Under the pieces are notes generated by a model. It was not told the DNA's origin, ran no database searches, and saw nothing but the letters and a program-made list of their open reading frames with translations. Position numbers and translations under genes: made by a program. Source: a phage. Taken from it: a stretch of DNA of 39,643 nt. The DNA lies in sequence record PZ386960.1; one strand, written 5' to 3'. The first letter of the stretch is position 1; the number at the start of each line of letters is the position of its first letter. This document shows positions 2,904-38,056 of this stretch, piece after piece.

Positions 2904-2926
2904 TAATGCGACTCACTAATGGGAAG
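2904..2926 (+). promoter_or_regulatory. Phage RNAP promoter (phiOL-like)
   Basis: TAATGCGACTCACTAAT-GGGAAG. Confidence 0.75.
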
Positions 2927-2999: not shown

Positions 3000-3028
3000 T
3001 TGACTCTAAGAAACAGCTATGTTCTAAT
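3000..3028 (+). promoter_or_regulatory. Host sigma70 early promoter (A1-like)
   Basis: TTGACT, 17-nt spacer, TCTAAT; preceded by ACTTAAAG repeats as upstream of T7 A1. Confidence 0.55.
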
Positions 3029-3135: not shown

Positions 3136-3164
3136 TTGACTCAACGAAAGCAATAACGTAGTAT
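3136..3164 (+). promoter_or_regulatory. Host sigma70 early promoter (A2-like)
   Basis: TTGACT, 17-nt spacer, TAGTAT. Confidence 0.5.
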
Positions 3165-3231: not shown

Positions 3232-3261
3232 TTGACAAGTAGTAGCGATAAGATGTAAGAT
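3232..3261 (+). promoter_or_regulatory. Host sigma70 early promoter (A3-like)
   Basis: TTGACA, 18-nt spacer, TAAGAT. Confidence 0.55.
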
Positions 3262-3446
3262 GTACGACATAACGTTCTCGTGAAGTCCCACACTGAAAGG
3301 GACTCGGTGCTAACAAACCTGCACTTAAAGCTCTTTAACAATTTGGATAATAAGCACTCTTGAGATGACGACAACAGCGATTAACTCAAGGTGACTCGAA
3401 AGAGAAGCCTTTATGATAATCACTGCAACCACATAAGGTAATCATC

Positions 3447-3902
3447 ATGATTCACACTAAAGAGCAAGCTAACGTTTTCTATGTACTGGTAAGCGCATTC
3501 CGTTCTAACCTGCACCACTTGGATAACCTTAGTCGTCATCGTCGCTTAGTTAACAGCTTACGCAATGCACCTCTGGAATACGGTAGCGTTGAGTCTACAG
3601 ACTTAACTGGCTGTTATCATGAGGCTGGCATGGAGTCACCCTCTGAAGAGCAAACCATTCGAGTACGCTGCACGACTAAAGCTCAAGCTATAAGTGTCGC
3701 ACGGTTGGCTTGTAACGACTATGAGCAAGACTGTGTACTGGTCTATAAGTCACAGACTCACAACGCTGCACTAATCTTTGCTGGTGGCTTGGACGGTTGG
3801 AAGACTGAGCGTATCGGGTCGTTCCAGATGGTCGCACCTGAAGTTGAACTGACAGGCAACTACACGGTCGATGAGTTCGGACGTGGCTGGAAGGTAATCT
3901 AA
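3447..3902 (+). CDS. gp0.3: S-adenosylmethionine-cleaving anti-restriction protein (T3-type SAMase / SAM lyase)
   Basis: 151 aa; MIHTKEQANVFYVLVSAFRSNL...GSVESTDLTGCY...CVLVYKSQTH...IDEFGRGW matches T3 0.3 as recalled; not Ocr-like. Confidence 0.9.
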   Translation: MIHTKEQANVFYVLVSAFRSNLHHLDNLSRHRRLVNSLRNAPLEYGSVESTDLTGCYHEAGMESPSEEQTIRVRCTTKAQAISVARLACNDYEQDCVLVYKSQTHNAALIFAGGLDGWKTERIGSFQMVAPEVELTGNYTVDEFGRGWKVI

Positions 3903-4102
3903 TGGTCATGGCACTCTTTGTAATCACTGTGTACGCTCTGATTGGGGCGTACTTCCTAAGAGACTTCCGCAAGGGTCTCAAGGTACACAAGGCTAACTTC
4001 TCGCACTTGAAGTATGGCTTTCTACCACGATTCACAGTCCGTGAACGTAACGGGCGCTTTAAGGCTAACAAGGTTGGTATCTTCTATGTTGCAACACACT
4101 GA
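3902..4102 (+). CDS. Hypothetical small membrane protein (gene 0.4-0.6 region)
   Basis: 66 aa; ATG overlaps the 0.3 stop (TAATG); N-terminal hydrophobic helix LFVITVYALIGAYFL; early-region position. Confidence 0.45.
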   Translation: MVMALFVITVYALIGAYFLRDFRKGLKVHKANFSHLKYGFLPRFTVRERNGRFKANKVGIFYVATH

Positions 4103-4263: not shown

Positions 4264-5367
4264 ATGAACTACACCGACATTCAGGCACGTCTGGCAATCA
4301 TCGAGTCACTCCCGATTAGCGAACTGGACAAGCGCCAGCCTCTTCTGGTTGCACTGGCTGCTGACATCGTGAACGGTGAGACAAGCGATGGCAACGACAC
4401 AGACGGGTCGCAGGGTCTTGAGTATCAGGACTGGTGGCACACTTTGGGTGCACTGATGCGTGATGCAGGTTTCCGCATGCTGGGTAATGGTCACTTCAGT
4501 GCAGCCTACTCGCACGAAATGTTACCGGGTCGAGTCATCAAGGTTGGCTTTAAGAAAGAGGATTCAGGCGCTGCATACACTGCATTCTGTAGGATGCACC
4601 AAGGCCGAGCGGGTATCCCTAACGTCTATCACGTAGCACGTCATGCAGGTTGCTACACAGTGGTGCTCGATAGGCTTCATAGCTGTGACCGCTACGCTAA
4701 CGATGTTCACGCAAAGTATGCAAGTGCTGCGCAGGAGTTCATTGAGTGCACTGGAGGTGATGCCGATTGGTACGCACAGTATGTTAGCAAGGAGTTCATT
4801 GAGACATGCAAGATGATTCGTGAGTTCTTCCACGGTATTGCATCTTTCGACATGCACAGCGGGAACATTATGTTCGATGACAACGATGTCCCGTACATCA
4901 CTGACCCGGTTAGTTTCTCACATGACCGTGAACGTGAGGACGGTTTCCCTCTGGACCCTGATGCACTGATTGCCGAGGTCGAGGCGATAGCTAACGAGCG
5001 CATCATTGAACGTTGCCGCATCCGCAAGGCAAAGTGTGACCCTAACGGAACCTTTCAGGTTAACCGCAAGGCCGCAATGAAACGCCGCAAGCGCAACCGT
5101 AAGTTACGTGCTAAACATGCAGCGGAAGGAATGCAACAGTTTGTCAAAGAGCGTCTTGAGCGTAGAGCTATTGGCCGAAATGAACGCCGTGCTGAGATGT
5201 TCATGGGGTCTGGCTGGCACGACTTCTGGTTACGCAATGGTAACACACTGGTACGCAAGGTTGAACAAGTGAACGGCCTCAAGTGGCAACTAGGGGACCG
5301 CCTCGCAATACAGGCTGGTCGCCCTTTGAACATCGACAAGGTACTTGACGCTCAACTGATGGGCTGA
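4264..5367 (+). CDS. gp0.7: Ser/Thr protein kinase and host transcription shutoff protein
   Basis: 367 aa; ELDKRQ, GNGHFSAAYSH, VIKVGFKKEDSGAAYTAFCRM, GIASFDMHSGNIMF, YITDPVSFS match T7/T3 0.7. Confidence 0.93.
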   Translation: MNYTDIQARLAIIESLPISELDKRQPLLVALAADIVNGETSDGNDTDGSQGLEYQDWWHTLGALMRDAGFRMLGNGHFSAAYSHEMLPGRVIKVGFKKEDSGAAYTAFCRMHQGRAGIPNVYHVARHAGCYTVVLDRLHSCDRYANDVHAKYASAAQEFIECTGGDADWYAQYVSKEFIETCKMIREFFHGIASFDMHSGNIMFDDNDVPYITDPVSFSHDREREDGFPLDPDALIAEVEAIANERIIERCRIRKAKCDPNGTFQVNRKAAMKRRKRNRKLRAKHAAEGMQQFVKERLERRAIGRNERRAEMFMGSGWHDFWLRNGNTLVRKVEQVNGLKWQLGDRLAIQAGRPLNIDKVLDAQLMG

Positions 5368-5439: not shown

Positions 5440-8088
5440 ATGAACGTAATCAACGCACCAAAGAATGACTTCTCTGACATCGCTAACGCAATCCAGCCGT
5501 ACAACATTCTGGCTGACCATTACGGTGCACATCTGGCGGCTACGCAGTTACAGTTAGAACACGAAGCGCACACTGAGGGCGAGAAGCGTTTCCTTAAGGC
5601 AATGGAGCGTCAAATCAAAGCTGGTGAGTTCGGTGATAACGCAGTGGCTAAACCGCTCCTGTCATCCCTCGCACCGAAGTTCATCGAAGCGTGGAACACT
5701 TGGTTCACTGAAGTGGAAGCGAAGCGTGGCAAGCGTCCAGTGGCCTACAATCTGGTACAGAAGGTTGCACCTGAAGCTGCTGCATTCATCACACTGAAGG
5801 TCACACTGGCTTGCTTGACCAAAGAGGAATACACGAACCTTCAATCGGTCGCCACTAAGATTGGTCGCAGTATTGAGGATGAACTGCGTTTTGGTCGCAT
5901 CCGTGACGAAGAAGCGAAGCACTTTAAGAACCATGTACAGGAGGCACTGAACAAGCGCGTTGGTATCGTCTACAAGAAAGCATTCATGCAAGCCGTAGAG
6001 GGCAAGATGCTTGATGCTGGTCAACTGCAAACCAAGTGGACCACATGGACACCTGAAGAATCAATTCACGTTGGTGTGCGCATGTTGGAACTGCTCATTG
6101 GTTCTACTGGTCTCGTTGAGTTACACCGCCCGTTCGCTGGTAACGTTGAGAAGGATGGCGAGTACATCCAGTTAACCGAGCAATATGTTGACCTGCTGTC
6201 TAAACGTGCTGGTGCACTGGCTGCAATCGCTCCGATGTATCAACCTTGCGTGGTCCCTCCGAAGCCGTGGACTTCTCCGGTTGGTGGTGGCTATTGGGCT
6301 GCTGGTCGCAAGCCTCTCTCTCTGGTTCGCACTGGTAGCAAGAAGGGACTGGAACGTTACAACGATGTGTACATGCCTGAAGTTTACAAGGCGGTGAACA
6401 TCGCACAGAATACTCCTTGGAAGATTAACAAGAAGGTTCTGGCAGTGGTCAACGAGATTGTGAACTGGAAGCATTGCCCGGTTGAAGATATACCCGCTCT
6501 GGAACGTGGGGAACTCCCGGTCAAACCTGATGACATCGACACCAACGAGGCATCGCTCAAAGCGTGGAAGAAAGCGGCCTCCGCAATCTACCGCAAAGAG
6601 AAGGCACGAGTGTCACGCCGCATGAGCATGGAGTTCATGTTAGGACAAGCCAACAAGTTCGCGCAGTTCAAGGCTATCTGGTTCCCGATGAACATGGACT
6701 GGCGCGGTCGTGTGTACGCTGTGCCGATGTTTAACCCGCAAGGCAACGACATGACCAAAGGCTTGCTGACGCTCGCTAAAGGTAAACCAATCGGTGTCGA
6801 TGGGTACTACTGGCTGAAGATTCACGGTGCTAACACTGCTGGTGTGGACAAGGTGGACTTTGCAGAACGCATCAAGTTCATTGATGACAACCACGAGAAC
6901 ATCATGAGCGTTGCGGCTGACCCGATTGCTAACACTTGGTGGGCTGAACAAGACTCTCCGTTCTGCTTCCTCGCGTTCTGCTTTGAGTATGCGGGAGTCC
7001 AGCACCACGGGATGAACTACAACTGCTCTCTACCTCTGGCGTTCGATGGCTCTTGCTCCGGTATTCAGCACTTCTCCGCGATGCTCCGCGATGAGGTCGG
7101 TGGTCGTGCTGTTAACCTGCTACCAAGTAAGGAAGTACAGGACATCTACCGCATTGTTGCCGAACGTGTGAACGAGATGCTCCGCGAAGCGGTAATCAAC
7201 GGCACTGATAACGAAGTGGAAACCGTGACCAATAAAGACACCGGAGAAATCACTGAGAAGCTCAAGCTGGGAACGAAAGAGTTAGCTGGTCAGTGGCTGG
7301 CCTACGGTGTGACTCGCAAGGTCACTAAGCGTTCGGTCATGACGTTGGCTTACGGTTCCAAAGAGTACGGCTTCCGTGACCAAGTTCTTGAGGACACCAT
7401 TCAGCCAGCTATCGACGATGGCAAGGGCTTGATGTTCACTCAACCGAACCAAGCGGCTGGCTACATGGCTAAACTGATTTGGGAATCGGTAACGGTCACA
7501 GTTGTCGCAGCGGTTGAAGCGATGAACTGGTTGAAGTCTGCTGCTAAACTTCTGGCTGCTGAAGTCAAGGACAAGAAGACTAAAGAAGTCCTCCGCAAGC
7601 GTTGCGCAGTACATTGGGTTACTCCTGATGGCTTCCCGGTCTGGCAGGAATACAAGAAGCCAGTACAGACCCGCTTGAACCTGATGTTCTTAGGCCAGAT
7701 TCGTCTACAGCCTACCGTGAACACCAACAAGGATAGCGGTATTGATGCTCGTAAACAGGAGTCAGGCATCGCACCTAACTTTGTCCACTCAATGGATGGA
7801 AGCCACCTGAGAATGACTGTAGTGCGCTCCAATGAGGTCTACGGTGTGGAATCCTTCGCACTGATTCACGACTCCTTTGGCACTATCCCGGCTGATGCTG
7901 GCAACCTGTTTAAAGCAGTGCGTGAAACGATGGTCAACACTTACGAAGAGAACGATGTACTTGCAGACTTCTATGAGCAATTTGCTGACCAGTTGCACGA
8001 ATCACAGCTTGACAAGATGCCTGAGATGCCAGCTAAAGGTTCTCTGGACCTGCAAGAAATCCTTAAGTCAGACTTTGCGTTTGCCTAA
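5440..8088 (+). CDS. gp1: Single-subunit DNA-dependent RNA polymerase
   Basis: 882 aa (T7 RNAP 883); near-colinear with T7 RNAP, including the specificity loop QPTVNTNKDSGIDARKQ and the C-terminal FAFA. Confidence 0.98.
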   Translation: MNVINAPKNDFSDIANAIQPYNILADHYGAHLAATQLQLEHEAHTEGEKRFLKAMERQIKAGEFGDNAVAKPLLSSLAPKFIEAWNTWFTEVEAKRGKRPVAYNLVQKVAPEAAAFITLKVTLACLTKEEYTNLQSVATKIGRSIEDELRFGRIRDEEAKHFKNHVQEALNKRVGIVYKKAFMQAVEGKMLDAGQLQTKWTTWTPEESIHVGVRMLELLIGSTGLVELHRPFAGNVEKDGEYIQLTEQYVDLLSKRAGALAAIAPMYQPCVVPPKPWTSPVGGGYWAAGRKPLSLVRTGSKKGLERYNDVYMPEVYKAVNIAQNTPWKINKKVLAVVNEIVNWKHCPVEDIPALERGELPVKPDDIDTNEASLKAWKKAASAIYRKEKARVSRRMSMEFMLGQANKFAQFKAIWFPMNMDWRGRVYAVPMFNPQGNDMTKGLLTLAKGKPIGVDGYYWLKIHGANTAGVDKVDFAERIKFIDDNHENIMSVAADPIANTWWAEQDSPFCFLAFCFEYAGVQHHGMNYNCSLPLAFDGSCSGIQHFSAMLRDEVGGRAVNLLPSKEVQDIYRIVAERVNEMLREAVINGTDNEVETVTNKDTGEITEKLKLGTKELAGQWLAYGVTRKVTKRSVMTLAYGSKEYGFRDQVLEDTIQPAIDDGKGLMFTQPNQAAGYMAKLIWESVTVTVVAAVEAMNWLKSAAKLLAAEVKDKKTKEVLRKRCAVHWVTPDGFPVWQEYKKPVQTRLNLMFLGQIRLQPTVNTNKDSGIDARKQESGIAPNFVHSMDGSHLRMTVVRSNEVYGVESFALIHDSFGTIPADAGNLFKAVRETMVNTYEENDVLADFYEQFADQLHESQLDKMPEMPAKGSLDLQEILKSDFAFA

Positions 8089-8095
8089 CGGAATC

Positions 8096-8118
8096 TAATA
8101 CGACTCACTATTGGGAGC
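8096..8118 (+). promoter_or_regulatory. Phage RNAP promoter (phi1.1A-like)
   Basis: TAATACGACTCACTATT-GGGAGC. Confidence 0.85.
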
Positions 8119-12273: not shown

Positions 12274-12726
12274 ATGACACTTAAGGAGAAACTGGAGGCT
12301 TACTCTAAAGTATCTCCTACTGGCTGCTGGGAGTGGCAACGCTCTCGGCTACCTTCTGGCTATGGACTCATATCTATAGGACACCAGAAGCAAGCATACA
12401 CACACCGAGTGTCTTACCAAGAGTTTCATGGAGAAATTCCTGAGGGTCTTGTTGTTAGACATAAATGTGATAACCCTTGTTGTTGTAACCCTGAACATCT
12501 TGAGGTTGGTACTCACAAAGATAACATGCAGGACTGCAAGAAACGAGGACGCATGGTGATGCCGCCAGTACATGTAGGAGAAGCTAATCACAAGACTAAG
12601 CTGACCGAGAGTGACGTCGAGTTCATTCTGAAATCTGATAAGACGCTAAAGGAACTTGCTGAGATGTTCGGAGTTACTCCACAAGCAATACGTTGGAGGA
12701 AGAGTCATGGCAGGTTACGGCGCTAA
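12274..12726 (+). CDS. HNH homing endonuclease-like protein
   Basis: 150 aa; HKCDNPCCCNPEHLEVGTHKDNMQD HNH/zinc motif; ATG overlaps the 2.5 stop; 3' end overlaps the gene 3 start by 20 nt. Confidence 0.8.
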   Translation: MTLKEKLEAYSKVSPTGCWEWQRSRLPSGYGLISIGHQKQAYTHRVSYQEFHGEIPEGLVVRHKCDNPCCCNPEHLEVGTHKDNMQDCKKRGRMVMPPVHVGEANHKTKLTESDVEFILKSDKTLKELAEMFGVTPQAIRWRKSHGRLRR

Positions 12727-13156
12727 AGGAATCAAGAAGGTAGGCATCTACCGAAGTGGGCTTGAAGAGAAGAACATGAAACTCTTAGAGTCAAAGGGTG
12801 TTAAAGCTGAGTACGAAATGTGGAGAGTACCTTATGTGGTTCCCGCAAGTAATCATCATTACACACCAGACATTTTATTACCTAACGGTATCTTTGTGGA
12901 GACTAAAGGCTTATGGGAAAGTGACGACCGCAAGAAACACTTGCTGATTCGTGAACAGTATCCTGAACTGGACATCCGTCTGGTCTTTTCAAGCAGTCGC
13001 ACCAAGATTTACAAGGGGTCGCCGACAAGCTACGCTGAATACTGTGAGAAGCACGGCATCTTATTTGCTGATAAGCTGATTCCAGTAGAGTGGCTTAAGG
13101 AAGCACCCCGGTCTGTACCGTTTGATAAACTAAAGACCAAGAAGGAGAAGAAATAA
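12707..13156 (+). CDS. gp3: Endonuclease I (Holliday junction resolvase)
   Basis: 149 aa from MAGYGAKG; GGAGGA SD; PDxxLPNGIFVETKGLWESDDRKKHLLIREQ matches T7 gp3. The listed ORF is an N-terminally extended version. Confidence 0.92.
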   Translation: MAGYGAKGIKKVGIYRSGLEEKNMKLLESKGVKAEYEMWRVPYVVPASNHHYTPDILLPNGIFVETKGLWESDDRKKHLLIREQYPELDIRLVFSSSRTKIYKGSPTSYAEYCEKHGILFADKLIPVEWLKEAPRSVPFDKLKTKKEKK

Positions 13157-19188: not shown

Positions 19189-19482
19189 ATGGCTATTACT
19201 AAACGCTTTAAAGTATCATTCGAAATGACCGTTAAGGTTGACTCTGAGACTGAAGTTATGATTCAGGAACGTATCTTAGACTTGGCTCGCAGTGTACGTG
19301 ATGGCGAGAAAGTTAGCGCACAGGACAAAGAGTTACTCGTACAGGCTCTTACTCATGGTGCCGATGGTGTTGTTGCCTTTGCTGTTAAGCAGGGCATTCG
19401 TAATGAAATCCGTGAGATGGGCATTGAGCACCACGGTGAAGGCATCAAGTTCGCACCAGCAACTATCCGTGAGGTGAAGTAA
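19189..19482 (+). CDS. gp5.5: Gene 5.5 protein (H-NS-binding in T7)
   Basis: 97 aa; MAITKRFKVSFEMTVK...PATIREV resembles T7 gp5.5. Confidence 0.8.
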   Translation: MAITKRFKVSFEMTVKVDSETEVMIQERILDLARSVRDGEKVSAQDKELLVQALTHGADGVVAFAVKQGIRNEIREMGIEHHGEGIKFAPATIREVK

Positions 19483-21512: not shown

Positions 21513-21866
21513 ATGGGTTGGGGTAAAAAGATTAAGAAGACAGTGAAGAAGACTGTAAAGAAAATTACCAAGCCAGTCGAGAAGGCTGTAAAGCAGGTTG
21601 GTAAGGCAGGTGAAGACATCGTTAAAGGTGCTGCTAGTATTGTTGGTGGCGCTCTTGGTCAGGGTGGTAAACCTGATGTTCAGGTAATCGAACAGGCTGC
21701 TCCAGTTGCTGCACCGCCTCCGGCTCAAATCATCGAGGCTCCAACTAAGGGAGACGTAGAGACCGAAGACGAAGCACAGACCGAATCTGGCAAGAAGAAA
21801 GCCCGTGCTGGTGGTAAGAAGTCTCTGAGTGTCGCTCGTAGTTCTGGCGGTGGTCTGAATATCTAA
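21513..21866 (+). CDS. gp7.3: Tail/host-range protein gp7.3
   Basis: 117 aa; C-terminal EDEAQTESGKKKARAGGKKSLSVARSSGGGLNI is near-identical to T7 gp7.3. Confidence 0.88.
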   Translation: MGWGKKIKKTVKKTVKKITKPVEKAVKQVGKAGEDIVKGAASIVGGALGQGGKPDVQVIEQAAPVAAPPPAQIIEAPTKGDVETEDEAQTESGKKKARAGGKKSLSVARSSGGGLNI

Positions 21867-24472: not shown

Positions 24473-24495
24473 TAATACGACTCACTATTGGGAGA
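24473..24495 (+). promoter_or_regulatory. Phage RNAP promoter (phi10-like)
   Basis: TAATACGACTCACTATT-GGGAGAG followed by the hairpin GGGAGAGACTACACGTTCTCCC. Confidence 0.9.
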
Positions 24496-26463: not shown

Positions 26464-28845
26464 ATGGCTCTTATTTCACAATCCGTCAAGAACCTGAAAG
26501 GCGGTATCAGTCAACAACCAGACATCTTAAGGTTCCCTGAACAGGGTGCCGAACAAATTAACGGCTGGTCGTCTGAAACTGAAGGTCTCCAGAAGAGGCC
26601 ACCTTTCATCTTTACGAAAACTATTGGTGACGCAGGGTTCCTTGGCACTGCACCTTTAGTTCACCTAATCAACCGTGATAGCGTCGAACAGTATTACGTT
26701 GTGTTCACTGGAAGCAGTGTTAAGGTGTTTGACCTGAATGGGCGCGAGTACGCTGTTCACGGAGACACCTCTTATGCTAACTGTGCGAACCCTCGTGATG
26801 ACTTGAGGATGGTCACTGTGGCAGACTACACGTTCGTAGTGAACCGCTCTAAGGTTGTTCAAGCCAACAAAGACCCTATCTACACTATTCGAGAAGATGG
26901 TGAGTGTCTCATTAACATCCGTGGTGGTCAGTATGGTCGTACCTTTACGATTAGACTGAATGGTATCTCTGCGTCCTATAAGATTGCTGATGGTGCCAAT
27001 GCCCCTGAAGTTGAACAGACTGATGCACAATGGCTCGTTAAGAAGATGGCACAGCTACTTCGAGAAGGAGGTGCAAATACTTGGGGATGGACTGTCAATG
27101 AGGGCGCTGGGTATATCCACGTTGTCTCTCGTGGTGATGAACCTATCTGGAAGGTAGAAGTAGAGGACGGCTATGGAGGTCAGTTGATGTCTGCTGTAAT
27201 GCACACCAGTCAGTCATTCAGTAAGCTACCCGCTGAGGCTCCTAATGGCTACTCTGTGCAAATCGTAGGGGACACCTCGAAGACCTCTGACGCATTCTAT
27301 GTGCAATATGATGCTGCCCGTAAGGTGTGGAAAGAAGTGGCTGGCTGGGGAGTACAGAAGGGACTCAACAATGGCACTATGCCCCATGCTCTGATTCGTC
27401 AGTCAGATGGTTCCTTTAAGATGGAAGCATTACCATGGGATGAACGCAAGTGTGGCGATATGAACACCAACCCCGACCCATCAATCGTAGACCAGAAGAT
27501 TAACGATGTGTTCTTCTTTCGCAACCGATTAGGGTTTCTTGCTGGTGAAAACATTGTGATGTCTCGTACCTCCAAGTATTTCTCACTGTTCCCTGCGTCG
27601 GTTGCCAACCTATCAGATGATGACCCAATTGACGTTGCCGTATCACACAACCGAATCAGTACGCTTAAATATGCTGTACCGTTCTCCGAAGAGTTGCTCC
27701 TATGGTCTGACCAAGCACAGTTCGTACTGTCTGCCTCTGGTATCCTCTCACCGAAGTCAGTTGAGTTGAACCTAACTACTGAGTTTGACGTGTCCGACAA
27801 AGCTCGTCCATACGGTATCGGTCGTGGTGTATACTTTGCGTCTCCACGCGCTTCCTATACGTCCATCAACCGTTACTATGCGGTACAGGATGTTAGCTCC
27901 GTGAAGTCTGCGGAGGACATGAGTGCTCACGTTCCTAGCTACATTCCTAATGGCGTGTTCTCCATTCGAGGCTCTGGCACTGAGAACTTCGTTTCGGTGT
28001 TATCTGCCAACGCCCCAAGCAAAATCTTCATGTACAAATTTCTGTACTTGAATGAGGAAAACGTGCAACAGTCGTGGTCTCATTGGGAACTAGGGAGTAA
28101 CGTAACTGTATTGGCTTGTGATTCTATTGGTTCCACCATGTACCTTCTGTTACGCAACCAGTCTCATACGTGGATGGCACGGGCACACTTCACGAAGAAC
28201 TCCATCGACTACCTTGATGAGCCTTATCGAATCTACATAGACAACAAGCTGGAAATCACCATCCCCGGTGGCTCCTATAATGATGACACCTACGAGACAG
28301 TAATATATCCCGGTCAGTTCTATGGAATGAAGACCTATCGTGGTAAGTATTACATCGTTGCGATGGATGGTAAGGTGACGTGGTTTGATGAACCTCAAGG
28401 TGGCTGGCCTAATGGGGAACCTCGCTTGGCACTCAGCGGGAACCGAGAAGGTGAAAAGGTGTACATTGGACAGGCAATCAACTTCCGATATGTATTCTCT
28501 AAGTTCCTCATCAAGAAGGCAGCGGATGATGGCTCAACGGCTACCGAGGACATTGGTCGCTTGCAGCTTCGCCGCGCATGGGTCAACTATGAGGATTCTG
28601 GTGCGTTCGTTGTGGAAGTCGAGAACACCTCACGTCTTTTCAGCTATGACATGGCAGGTGCTCGATTGGGTTCCAACGCTTTACGCTCTGGTGGACTCAA
28701 CGTCGGTACTGGTCAGTTCCGATTCCCTGTGTCCGGCAATGCCAAGCTGAACGAGGTGCGTATCATCTCTGACCACACTACACCACTTAACGTGATTGGA
28801 TGTGGATGGGAAGGAAACTACCTGCGCCGTTCTTCTGGTATCTAA
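26464..28845 (+). CDS. gp12: Tail tubular protein B
   Basis: 793 aa from MALISQSVKNLKGGISQQPD; AAGGAGG SD; T7 gp12 is 794 aa. The listed ORF is a 5'-extended version. Confidence 0.95.
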   Translation: MALISQSVKNLKGGISQQPDILRFPEQGAEQINGWSSETEGLQKRPPFIFTKTIGDAGFLGTAPLVHLINRDSVEQYYVVFTGSSVKVFDLNGREYAVHGDTSYANCANPRDDLRMVTVADYTFVVNRSKVVQANKDPIYTIREDGECLINIRGGQYGRTFTIRLNGISASYKIADGANAPEVEQTDAQWLVKKMAQLLREGGANTWGWTVNEGAGYIHVVSRGDEPIWKVEVEDGYGGQLMSAVMHTSQSFSKLPAEAPNGYSVQIVGDTSKTSDAFYVQYDAARKVWKEVAGWGVQKGLNNGTMPHALIRQSDGSFKMEALPWDERKCGDMNTNPDPSIVDQKINDVFFFRNRLGFLAGENIVMSRTSKYFSLFPASVANLSDDDPIDVAVSHNRISTLKYAVPFSEELLLWSDQAQFVLSASGILSPKSVELNLTTEFDVSDKARPYGIGRGVYFASPRASYTSINRYYAVQDVSSVKSAEDMSAHVPSYIPNGVFSIRGSGTENFVSVLSANAPSKIFMYKFLYLNEENVQQSWSHWELGSNVTVLACDSIGSTMYLLLRNQSHTWMARAHFTKNSIDYLDEPYRIYIDNKLEITIPGGSYNDDTYETVIYPGQFYGMKTYRGKYYIVAMDGKVTWFDEPQGGWPNGEPRLALSGNREGEKVYIGQAINFRYVFSKFLIKKAADDGSTATEDIGRLQLRRAWVNYEDSGAFVVEVENTSRLFSYDMAGARLGSNALRSGGLNVGTGQFRFPVSGNAKLNEVRIISDHTTPLNVIGCGWEGNYLRRSSGI

Positions 28846-36283: not shown

Positions 36284-38056
36284 ATGGCTCTCAAGATTCG
36301 TACCGTAATGACTTATCCGCTAACAGGTGCTGTGGACTTTGCAATCACCTTTGAATACTTAGCGCGTAAGTTCGTGACGGTAACTCTAATTGGTAAAGAC
36401 CGTAAGGAACTTGTTCTCAATCAGGACTATCGGTTCACCACTAAGACACAAATAACTACAACCCGCACATGGACTGCTGCTGACGGATATGACTCTATTG
36501 AGATTCGTAGATACACCTCTGCGACTGACCGTCTGGTTGACTTTGCTGATGGCTCAATCCTTCGTGCGTATGACCTAAACATCGCACAGATTCAAACGCT
36601 TCACGTTGCCGAAGAAGCACGAGACCTCACTGCGGATACCATTGGTGTAAACAATGACGGGCACTTGGATGCTCGTGGTCGCCGTATTGTGAATGTTGCC
36701 AACCCTGTAGAAGACGGGGATGCTGTTAACTTAAGGTCACTCAAGGTGTGGAATGACTCTGCACTTAACTCTGCCAACCGAGCAAAAGAATCCGCAGAAG
36801 AAGCGAAGAGACAATCAGATTGGGCTGGGCGTATGCGAAATGAGGCAGAACAGTTCAAGAACGAGGCTAACACTCACCGAGGCGTTGCTGAGTCTGCTAA
36901 AGACCAAGCCATTGCTGCTCGTGATGTGGCTAACTCCGCTAAAGACCAAGCGTCCAATAGCCGTAGTGAGTCCTTGCGTTTCGCTGAGGAGTCCAACCAG
37001 TACATGGGGTGGGCGAAGAAGTGGGCTGTTAACCCGGTCGATGTAGTCATTCAGGATGGTGAGTTCTCTGCGAAGCACTGGCAGCACTACTCAAAGGTTG
37101 AAGCTGACCGCTCTAAGAATGAAGCTGACCGAGCAACTAACGAGGCCAACAAGTTAGGCAACATTAACGCTCTTGCTGCTGCAATCGAGAAGGTTGATGG
37201 AATACGTGTGTTCTGGAAAGGTGAGCAACATTGGGATGGACGATTGTATATGACCTCAAGTGGTTTTGACTGTGGACAGTATCAACAGTTCTTCGGTGGT
37301 GTACCTAACCGTTACTCTGTCATGGAATGGGGCGACAAGGATGGATGGCATTTGTATTCTGAGAGACAAACTGAAGGAGGTGCTCCAACACTAAGCCTGC
37401 GCGGCCACATGATTGCTGGGGGTGATATTAGATCTTCTGGAAATCAATATACCAACAACATGTTTGTACAAGACCGGGAACAATACTGGCCGGGACGAGG
37501 TGCATTCGCTAATCAGTTCAATGACAAGGATGCTCCATTTGCGAAGACTGGTCAGTTCCACGCCCCCAATGGTTACGGAGAGTACTACCCAATCGTAAAA
37601 GCATTCGTGTCAACTATTGGACACGGCTATGGCACAGTTGCTACGTTTGGTATGTTGACATCTGGCAGTGGTCGTTTTGCTAATGCGTGTATTCACGTAA
37701 TTGGAGACAACGGAACCAACGGTCTCTGGCAGTTTGACCCCAACACTGGAGAGTTCCTGTCACGCGGTGACGTTAAGGTAGGTGATGGCTGTACCATCTA
37801 CCAGAATGGGGATGTTTGGGGGACCGTTTGGGGGAGTCGACCACTCACACAGTGGTTAGGAGACCAGACTGTTAACCACATCGCTATGGGAGGTCGTAAT
37901 GATTCTCCTGTGTGGAATGCCTACGGTATTGGTGATGGAGATGGCAAGGTTATCACTGGTGTAGTTAATGGTAACGCTGATGGCGCCATTGACACAATTC
38001 AGTGGCGTGTTATGCAGTATGTTCGAAACAACGGACAGCGCTTTAATATCTACTAA
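36284..38056 (+). CDS. gp17: Tail fibre protein, mosaic: T7-like N-terminal and shaft region with a replaced distal tip
   Basis: 590 aa; residues 1 to about 350 match T7/T3 gp17 (FEYLARKF, ILRAYDLNIAQIQTLHVAEEARDL, GFDCGQYQQFFGGV.NRYSVMEWGD); the last ~230 aa are unrelated to the T7 tip as recalled. Confidence 0.92.
   Translation: MALKIRTVMTYPLTGAVDFAITFEYLARKFVTVTLIGKDRKELVLNQDYRFTTKTQITTTRTWTAADGYDSIEIRRYTSATDRLVDFADGSILRAYDLNIAQIQTLHVAEEARDLTADTIGVNNDGHLDARGRRIVNVANPVEDGDAVNLRSLKVWNDSALNSANRAKESAEEAKRQSDWAGRMRNEAEQFKNEANTHRGVAESAKDQAIAARDVANSAKDQASNSRSESLRFAEESNQYMGWAKKWAVNPVDVVIQDGEFSAKHWQHYSKVEADRSKNEADRATNEANKLGNINALAAAIEKVDGIRVFWKGEQHWDGRLYMTSSGFDCGQYQQFFGGVPNRYSVMEWGDKDGWHLYSERQTEGGAPTLSLRGHMIAGGDIRSSGNQYTNNMFVQDREQYWPGRGAFANQFNDKDAPFAKTGQFHAPNGYGEYYPIVKAFVSTIGHGYGTVATFGMLTSGSGRFANACIHVIGDNGTNGLWQFDPNTGEFLSRGDVKVGDGCTIYQNGDVWGTVWGSRPLTQWLGDQTVNHIAMGGRNDSPVWNAYGIGDGDGKVITGVVNGNADGAIDTIQWRVMQYVRNNGQRFNIY

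Follow-up and report, generated by a model that had tools for sequence, protein, structure and literature searches.

In T7, the product of gene 0.3 is Ocr, a stoichiometric DNA mimic and not an enzyme, which inhibits both Type I restriction-modification (R-M) and BREX. T3 encodes at this position an S-adenosylmethionine (SAM) lyase ('SAMase'), for which structures are available (7OCK, 8BB1), and a further SAM lyase, Svi3-3, comes from an environmental phage (PMC7877911). In Svi3-3, residues G56, Y58, E69, Q104 and E105 position SAM for intramolecular cleavage (PMC7877911); the T3 counterparts examined by mutagenesis are E68 and Q94 (E68Q/Q94A mutants), together with the neighboring D95 (bioRxiv 10.1101/2023.02.27.530186). 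The T3 enzyme has a second activity: it binds MetK, the SAM synthetase of the host, with its N-terminal tail and β4-β5 loop, and T4, N9, Q103, T104 and H105 are strictly conserved for this binding in the T3-like subfamily (bioRxiv 10.1101/2023.02.27.530186).

We analyzed a phage DNA of 39,643 nucleotides (PZ386960.1), hereafter the window, which represents a complete, circularly permuted phage genome of ~39.6 kb and begins at the gene 19 ATG. Its gene 0.3 (Table 1) is an intact ORF, with coordinates that agree exactly with those of an earlier note made from the sequence alone, in which the product had been described as a T3-type SAM-cleaving enzyme and not an Ocr. This description held. The protein matched the Pfam family PF23780 (S-AdoMet_lyase) at 135.6 bits (E 1.3e-39; the curated gathering cut-off is 28 bits) over profile positions 1-132 of 133, and its only match among all PDB chains was the T3 SAM lyase (7OCK_L/8BB1; E 1.8e-61). 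Alignment to T3 0.3, which the earlier note had proposed as a check, gave 67% identity over the full length (residues 1-150 to 1-151, with one single-residue gap). In contrast, tblastn detected no similarity between the 0.3 protein and T7 gene 0.3, and the strong acidity of Ocr (pI 4.05, with 34 D+E and 6 K+R in 117 aa) is not found in the window protein (pI 6.05, 18 D+E, 15 K+R). On all sequence criteria examined, the 0.3 protein therefore belongs with the T3-type SAM lyases. A single-sequence AlphaFold2 model of the 151-aa protein was unusable (mean pLDDT 34.7), and we infer a nine-stranded β-barrel fold from the 67% identity to the solved T3 chain.

The likeness to T3 gp0.3 extends to the length of the protein, which is within one residue, and to its position as first gene behind the predicted host promoters. 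It also has limits, because the C-terminal third is only ~52% identical, two MetK-contact residues differ (see below) and the backbone belongs to another genus. With Svi3-3 the window protein would share the reaction chemistry and does share three or four conserved substrate-binding residues, but the sequence similarity is barely detectable. With Ocr it shares no sequence similarity, only the genomic slot and a predicted early role against restriction and BREX.

The five substrate-positioning residues (G55, Y57, E68, Q94 and D95 in T3 numbering) were all identical in the 0.3 protein, and the five strictly conserved MetK-binding residues were likewise all kept. Further MetK contacts were preserved (M1, I2, K5 and A8), and the only MetK-contact positions that had changed were F3H and T106N. 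Identity to the T3 and BA14 alleles was 48-52% in the C-terminal third (residues 106-151). The in-frame internal start of T3, Met28, is a Leu (CTT) in the window, so that the window gene is not expected to give the second, shorter product of the T3 annotation. Within its allele clade, gene 0.3 is under purifying selection (dN/dS 0.08-0.10). Conceivably, the fold could have been kept while the function shifted, the protein now only binding MetK, having lost MetK binding, or cleaving another SAM-derived molecule such as the SAM-AMP defense signal. The divergence of residues 106-151 and the two substitutions at the MetK interface would fit such a shift, and relatives of phage SAM lyases reportedly degrade SAM-AMP. 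However, no residue shown to be catalytically important and no strictly conserved MetK-binding residue has been lost, and purifying selection acts on the allele clade, which makes a shifted function very unlikely.

Anti-restriction through SAM depletion, also put forward in the earlier note, is the best functional prediction for gene 0.3 and is supported as such by the family match and the conserved residues. As judged from these residues, the enzyme would hold SAM in a reactive conformation and so promote its self-cleavage to 5'-methylthioadenosine and homoserine lactone, and its N-terminal tail and β4-β5 loop would bind MetK, inhibiting SAM synthesis. Experiments in T3 suggest that the resulting SAM depletion would disable SAM-dependent defenses, among them Type I R-M and BREX. 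The mechanism demonstrated for T3, which begins with early expression by host RNA polymerase, is thus the best supported for the window gene. On both strands, the genome contains 5 EcoKI, 8 EcoBI and 7 EcoAI target sites, as well as 30 BREX-type GGTAAG sites.

By alignment to position 1 of BA14, the physical left end of the genome lies at ~2458. From this end, phiOL is followed by three sigma-70-like sites, gene 0.3, gene 0.6A, gene 0.7 and gene 1 (Table 1), gene 0.3 being the first protein-coding gene. A sigma-70 scan 5' of gene 0.3 returned 5 sites versus 3.2 +/- 1.7 in shuffles, a count not above expectation, and the host promoters were therefore assigned only by synteny, those annotated in T7, T3 and BA14 likewise lying 5' of 0.3. 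The A1-like candidate fails the scan rule, by which the second base of the -10 hexamer must be an A. By this synteny, host RNA polymerase would transcribe gene 0.3 from A-type early promoters, and 0.3 would be the first gene on the genome end that enters the cell first. Folding of positions 3340-3450 for an RNase III-type hairpin 5' of 0.3 gave -21.5 kcal/mol, which was not significant (z -1.68, 12 of 200 shuffles as good). The T3 record annotates R0.3 at the place corresponding to this region. At its 3' end, the 0.3 stop overlaps the 0.6A ATG (TAATG at 3900-3904), which suggests translational coupling of the two genes.

Table 1. Features of the early region, the phage RNA polymerase gene and the phage promoters, in window coordinates.
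Feature	Position (nt)	Strand	Details
Phage-RNAP promoter phiOL	2904..2926	+	TAATGCGACTCACTAATGGGAAG; syntenic with annotated BA14 phiOL
Candidate host sigma-70 early promoter, A1-like	3000..3028	+	TTGACT-17-TCTAAT; found by eye, weaker evidence
Candidate host early promoter, A2-like	3136..3164	+	TTGACT-17-TAGTAT; consensus scan 9/12
Candidate host early promoter, A3-like	3232..3261	+	TTGACA-18-TAAGAT; consensus scan 10/12
Shine-Dalgarno-like AAGGT	3435..3439	+	7 nt 5' of the gene 0.3 ATG; direct sequence reading
Gene 0.3, predicted S-adenosylmethionine lyase ('SAMase')	3447..3902	+	151 aa; ATG 3447, TAA 3900-3902
Within-Berlinvirus allele-swap interval	3512..3972	.	left breakpoint sharp at 3512 (codon 22/23), right diffuse, 3910-3972
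Gene 0.6A homologue	3902..4102	+	66 aa; 95-98% aa identity to BA14 and PhiV-1 0.6A; phrog_2385
Gene 0.7 Ser/Thr protein kinase homologue	4264..5367	+	aa identity: PhiV-1 95%, BA14 74%, T3 and T7 gp0.7 51-53%
Gene 1, single-subunit RNA polymerase	5440..8088	+	882 aa; Pfam PF00940, PF14700
RNAP AT-rich recognition loop AKRGKRP	5719-5739	+	T7 state at R96 and K98; K and R in T3
RNAP specificity loop	7651-7746	+	YKKPVQTRLNLMFLGQIRLQPTVNTNKDSGID; aa 738-769; differs from the T7 loop at 4/32 positions
RNAP Asn747	7678-7680	+	equivalent to T7 N748; Asp in T3
Phage promoter phi1.05	8096..8118	+	one of 15
Other phage promoters (starts)	1896, 8720, 9245, 11504, 13609, 15542, 16375, 20876, 23488, 24473, 25823, 28874, 36216	+	besides phiOL and phi1.05

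The nearest records to the window were all Berlinviruses (ErnstBeyeler, CarlSpitteler, PhiV-1, BA14, Kvp1 and PYPS50), with 91-95% nucleotide identity over 80-100% of each half. Its core proteins were 95-100% identical to those of BA14 and PhiV-1 and 40-83% identical to those of both T7 and T3, with no T3-like or T7-like region standing out. By these relationships, the window is a Berlinvirus phage; genome-wide relatedness did not place it in Teseptimavirus, the T7 lineage, the RNA polymerase (RNAP) being 76.6% identical to that of T7 versus 97-99% to those of Berlinviruses. The closest 0.3 proteins show strain-level differences only: that of PhiV-1 (MT542512) is 99% identical and lies in the same context, in an early region of mostly 90-100% nucleotide identity, and that of ErnstBeyeler (Bas67, MZ501064) is 97% identical, likewise in the same context, and annotated 'SAM hydrolase / restriction inhibitor'. 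The PhiV-1, ErnstBeyeler and window genomes are otherwise mosaics of one another (gp5.5, gp7.3, gp12 and tail fiber). Gene 3 was considered as a T7-derived patch, with 80% amino acid identity to T7 vs 73-76% to BA14 and PhiV-1, but this was rejected, its best nucleotide matches being other Berlinviruses (~92% in the Yersinia Berlin group, ~90% in PcCB251 and PP74); by these matches it is a within-genus allele. An HNH endonuclease adjoins gene 3 and is placed like T7 gp2.8.

The RNAP and promoters of the window had been described in the earlier note as T7-like, which proved correct for the recognition code and not for the polymerase as a whole. The 15 plus-strand phage promoters have the consensus TAATACGACTCACTAWTGGGAGA, which is that of T7 from -17 to -3, with T and not A at -1. 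As expected of T7-type promoters, which have C-G-A at -12 to -10, most of them carry ACGACTCACTA, and 6 match the T7 consensus with 3 mismatches or fewer (shuffles gave 0); a search of the window for the T3 promoter consensus with up to 3 mismatches found no match. Their positions are syntenic with most annotated BA14 promoters, although no counterpart of BA14 phi1.5 and phi1.6 was found in the window and the window promoter before gene 11 is without a BA14 counterpart. The T7 state of the recognition residues in the RNAP (R96, K98 and the equivalent of N748, Table 1) agrees with these 15 T7-like promoters. Over its whole length, however, the RNAP was 97.8-98.6% identical to those of BA14 and PhiV-1 and 75.2% identical to that of T3, close to the value for T7, when the T7 and T3 enzymes are 82.2% identical to each other. 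In a neighbor-joining tree of RNAPs, Berlinvirus branched outside the group formed by T7, T3 and Przondovirus. As judged from this tree and these identities, the window RNAP is T7-type in its recognition code only, not by descent. Asn at T7 position 748 is also found in Kayfunavirus IMM-002 and in an Unyawovirus RNAP, Kayfunavirus GW1 having Asp, and Asn is plausibly the ancestral state at this position.

The earlier note had further proposed recombination among Studiervirinae lineages. In this reading, a T3-lineage (Teetrevirus) 0.3 would have recombined into a T7-lineage (Teseptimavirus-like) genome to give a hybrid. In its favor, textbooks associate the SAM lyase with T3 and Ocr with T7, and the window has the T7 state in its promoters and RNAP recognition residues; moreover, Teetrevirus and Berlinvirus have been reported to exchange tail fibers (PMC11680406). 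Nevertheless, the backbone is neither that of T7 nor that of T3: the RNAP is 77% and 75% identical to theirs, vs 82% between the two, and the core genes are 95-100% Berlinvirus. Nor is the SAM lyase closer to T3 than the backbone is, with 67% amino acid identity (~62% in nucleotides over the gene body) compared to 75% for the RNAP and 74% for the DNA polymerase. Nucleotide identity between the window and T3 ranged from 44 to 75% within the 0.3 gene body and from 64 to 72% along the upstream leader, and a gene-by-gene comparison, in which every gene was 40-83% identical to both T7 and T3, revealed no T3-derived patch. Gene 0.3 is markedly closer to Teetrevirus than its flanks and backbone, as expected of an inter-genus recombinant, in BA14 and CarlSpitteler (89% aa and 73-88% nt to T3), but not in the window. 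The combination of SAM lyase and T7-like promoters is also found across the genus, BA14 being annotated with gp0.3 and the same promoter set, and the SAM lyase is widespread outside Teetrevirus. The hybrid reading is thus not supported: the genomes of the nearest relatives belong throughout to a single lineage, Berlinvirus, and we regard a hybrid origin as extremely improbable.

By tblastn, the SAM lyase was found in 503 phage records, essentially all of them T7-sized genomes. In no fewer than five genera (Berlinvirus, Teetrevirus, Kayfunavirus, Przondovirus and Unyawovirus) it proved to be the first of the early genes, and it also occupies this position in Pectobacterium Studiervirinae (PMC7693777). 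For the window, amino acid identities of the SAM lyase and of the RNAP were respectively 94% and 97% to the Berlinvirus PcCB251, 75% and 90% to the Berlinvirus pEa_SNUABM_57, 67% and 75% to T3 (Teetrevirus), 57-59% and 64-65% to Kayfunavirus, and 42-43% and 62-69% to Przondovirus, the best match of the window allele outside Berlinvirus being 67%. This divergence tracks the backbone and looks like the pattern of vertical descent of a fast-evolving gene. In the RNAP tree, carriers of the SAM lyase lie to either side of the T7 branch, and the simplest reading is therefore that it is ancestral and was replaced by Ocr in the T7 lineage. The SAM lyase and the T7-like promoters are probably two retained ancestral traits in Studiervirinae, and Ocr (in Teseptimavirus) and Asp748 (in Teetrevirus) look like derived states.

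Two 0.3 alleles are present among Berlinviruses, which we call window-type and BA14-type. The window-type allele is carried by PhiV-1, ErnstBeyeler and PcCB251 (99%, 97% and 94% amino acid identity), and by PYPS50, SPLA4 and several Salmonella phages (at least 90% nucleotide identity). The BA14-type allele is carried by BA14, CarlSpitteler (Bas68), 285P, Kvp1, FE44 and others; Yersinia phage Berlin, the type species of the genus, has no 0.3. The BA14-type protein is 68% identical to that of the window and 89% identical to those of T3 and phiYeO3-12, and nucleotide identity in the gene body is ~64% between window and BA14-type and ~80% between BA14-type and T3. Compared with CarlSpitteler, which has an identical upstream leader and identical first 22 codons, and in which the flanks of 0.3 are 95-100% identical, the window showed 0 mismatches in 3401-3511, 139 in 3513-3902 and few after 3972. 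Sliding identity was 100% at 3417-3506, 47-78% in the gene body and 88-100% from ~3957. BA14 shares the first 22 residues at 97% nucleotide identity, with a more divergent leader (73-77%), and BA14-type phages and the window have almost the same 0.6A and RNAP on the flank (95-99% aa). Given these changes in identity, the event is best described as a cassette swap at the 0.3 locus within the genus, and by the same comparisons the T3-like allele is carried by BA14 and CarlSpitteler, not by the window. The genomes that hold the two diverged alleles, exchanged from codon 23 to the stop, are otherwise ~91-95% identical in nucleotides.

As to the direction of this swap, the window-type allele is likely the genus-resident one, because its deep within-genus diversity scales with the backbone (pEa_SNUABM_57) and because the BA14-type protein is closer to that of T3 (89%) than the RNAPs are (75%), though the SAM lyase otherwise evolves ~2-2.5x faster; against the other pairs, this 89/75 ratio is anomalous. 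The likeness of the BA14-type allele to T3 was also considered as the mark of a recent transfer, which the synonymous divergence ruled out: between BA14 and T3, pS is 0.64 in 0.3 (dS 1.4) and 0.66-0.71 in RNAP and backbone, near saturation. Since this divergence shows no recent transfer, the polarity of the swap is something that we infer. With the reverse polarity, the vertically inherited Berlinvirus allele would be the BA14-type one, strongly constrained, and a crossover at codon 22 and close to the stop would have brought in the window-type allele from unsampled Studiervirinae. This would agree with the even ~80% nucleotide identity of the BA14-type gene to T3 across the ORF, including the first 66 nt common to the window, with a synonymous divergence close to backbone saturation, and with megablast matches that include 30 records at 60-80% (BA14-type-like) vs 13 at 90% or more (window-type). 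However, a divergent Berlinvirus, pEa_SNUABM_57, has the window-type allele, the similarity of BA14-type and T3 proteins exceeds that of their RNAPs in a gene that elsewhere evolves faster, and no donor lineage was seen, the top non-Berlinvirus match being that at 67%. We therefore consider the reverse polarity unlikely. The window-type 0.3 would most likely be resident in the genus, inherited vertically with an RNAP and promoters that keep the T7-like recognition code.

Defense systems that are triggered by Ocr exist. By analogy, the maintenance of the two alleles (68% aa identity, dS ~1.3), with the altered C-terminal third and MetK contacts of the window allele, might reflect diversifying or balancing selection. 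It would be exerted by host factors, for example MetK variants or an unknown immune sensor, able to sense one particular SAM lyase or to resist it, an explanation which we hold to be improbable. If true, the two alleles would differ in the hosts or defenses that they overcome.

Altogether, these results point to a Berlinvirus gene 0.3 that encodes a T3-family SAM lyase, expressed early, acting against host defenses by SAM depletion and inherited vertically and not through a T3 x T7 hybrid, a view to which we assign a probability of roughly 0.88. The gene itself is already known: a 99% identical protein is in GenBank (PhiV-1), and the BA14 record shows gp0.3 together with T7-like promoters; a literature search on the BA14 SAMase, limited to one library of papers, gave no result. 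Only mildly new are the mapped within-genus allele swap, which with its breakpoint at codon 22/23 offers a tidy, if incremental, example of cassette exchange at an anti-defense locus, and the point that the textbook T3/T7 dichotomy is misleading here. The equation of the SAM lyase with T3 and of Ocr with T7 is an artefact of two model phages. Across Studiervirinae, the gene that commonly comes first among the early genes is a SAM lyase, and lineages that branch off outside T7 and T3 have the T7-style promoter code; their presence together is therefore uninformative on hybrid origin. For the phage itself, the prediction is that in enterobacterial hosts it resists those Type I R-M and BREX systems that depend on SAM, which would bear on host range and on the choice of phages for therapy.

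The window holds a complete Berlinvirus genome (~39.6 kb) in circularly permuted form, with position 1 falling exactly on the ATG of gene 19, the large terminase gene. Position 1 of the related phage BA14 aligns at window ~2458, marking the physical left end, and the window apparently contains just a single copy of the terminal repeat. In this genome, GATC (Dam) sites are very strongly avoided, with only one site in 39.6 kb (vs six in T7 and ten in T3). Over positions -17 to -3, the Berlinvirus phage promoters agree fully with the T7 consensus; at -2 they carry A or T, and at -1 a T in place of the A of T7. The annotated promoters of BA14 follow this same pattern.

Judging from protein alignments, further genes of the window are mosaic among its near relatives, namely 0.7, gp5.5, gp7.3 and gp12, with gene-to-gene differences in identity to BA14 and PhiV-1 (see table). 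For the tail fibre protein gp17, alignment with BA14 and PhiV-1 covers only the N-terminal ~56% (58% amino acid identity), while Kvp1 (Kluyvera) and SPLA4 (Salmonella) match at 92-93% nucleotide identity across the entire second half of the window genome, which suggests that the receptor-binding module was exchanged.

Endonuclease I (gene 3) adjoins an HNH homing endonuclease gene, which occupies the position equivalent to gp2.8 in T7. The enzyme is closer to that of T7 (80% amino acid identity) than to those of BA14 and PhiV-1 (73-76%), as a T7-derived patch would be. This origin was rejected, because the top nucleotide matches of the HNH/endonuclease I region (window 12274-13156) are the Pectobacterium Berlinviruses PcCB251 and PP74 (~90%); on nucleotide comparison, window endonuclease I is thus an intra-genus Berlinvirus allele.

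Features of the window.
Feature	Window position	Remark
Gene 19 (large terminase)	1-1761	
0.3 (SAM lyase)	3447-3902	
Codon 28 of 0.3	3528-3530	Leu (CTT); Ile in PhiV-1
Kinase 0.7	4264-5367	PhiV-1 95%, BA14 74% (aa)
HNH homing endonuclease	12274-12726	PF13392; between genes 2.5 and 3
Endonuclease I (gene 3)	12707-13156	
gp5.5	19189-19482	BA14 99%, PhiV-1 56% (aa)
gp7.3	21513-21866	66-70% to BA14 and PhiV-1 alike
Phage promoter (example)	24473-24495	T at -1
gp12	26470-28845	81% to BA14 and PhiV-1 alike
gp17 (tail fibre)	36284-38056	

T3-type SAM lyases, the family of window 0.3 and of its counterpart in the comparison phage record L002 (901-1359), are labelled 'SAM-dependent methyltransferase' in RefSeq re-annotations and in PHROG 2226. 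This label is a propagated misannotation, as the enzyme destroys SAM. In T3, 0.3 has an annotated in-frame internal start at Met28 that yields a shorter product; because this Met is replaced in the window allele, the second product is probably not made. The gene itself is absent from Yersinia phage Berlin, type species of the genus (record L005, 1-2480), which carries a 76-aa ORF upstream of the kinase gene. The lack of 0.3 in this phage indicates that the filling of the anti-restriction slot varies within Berlinvirus.
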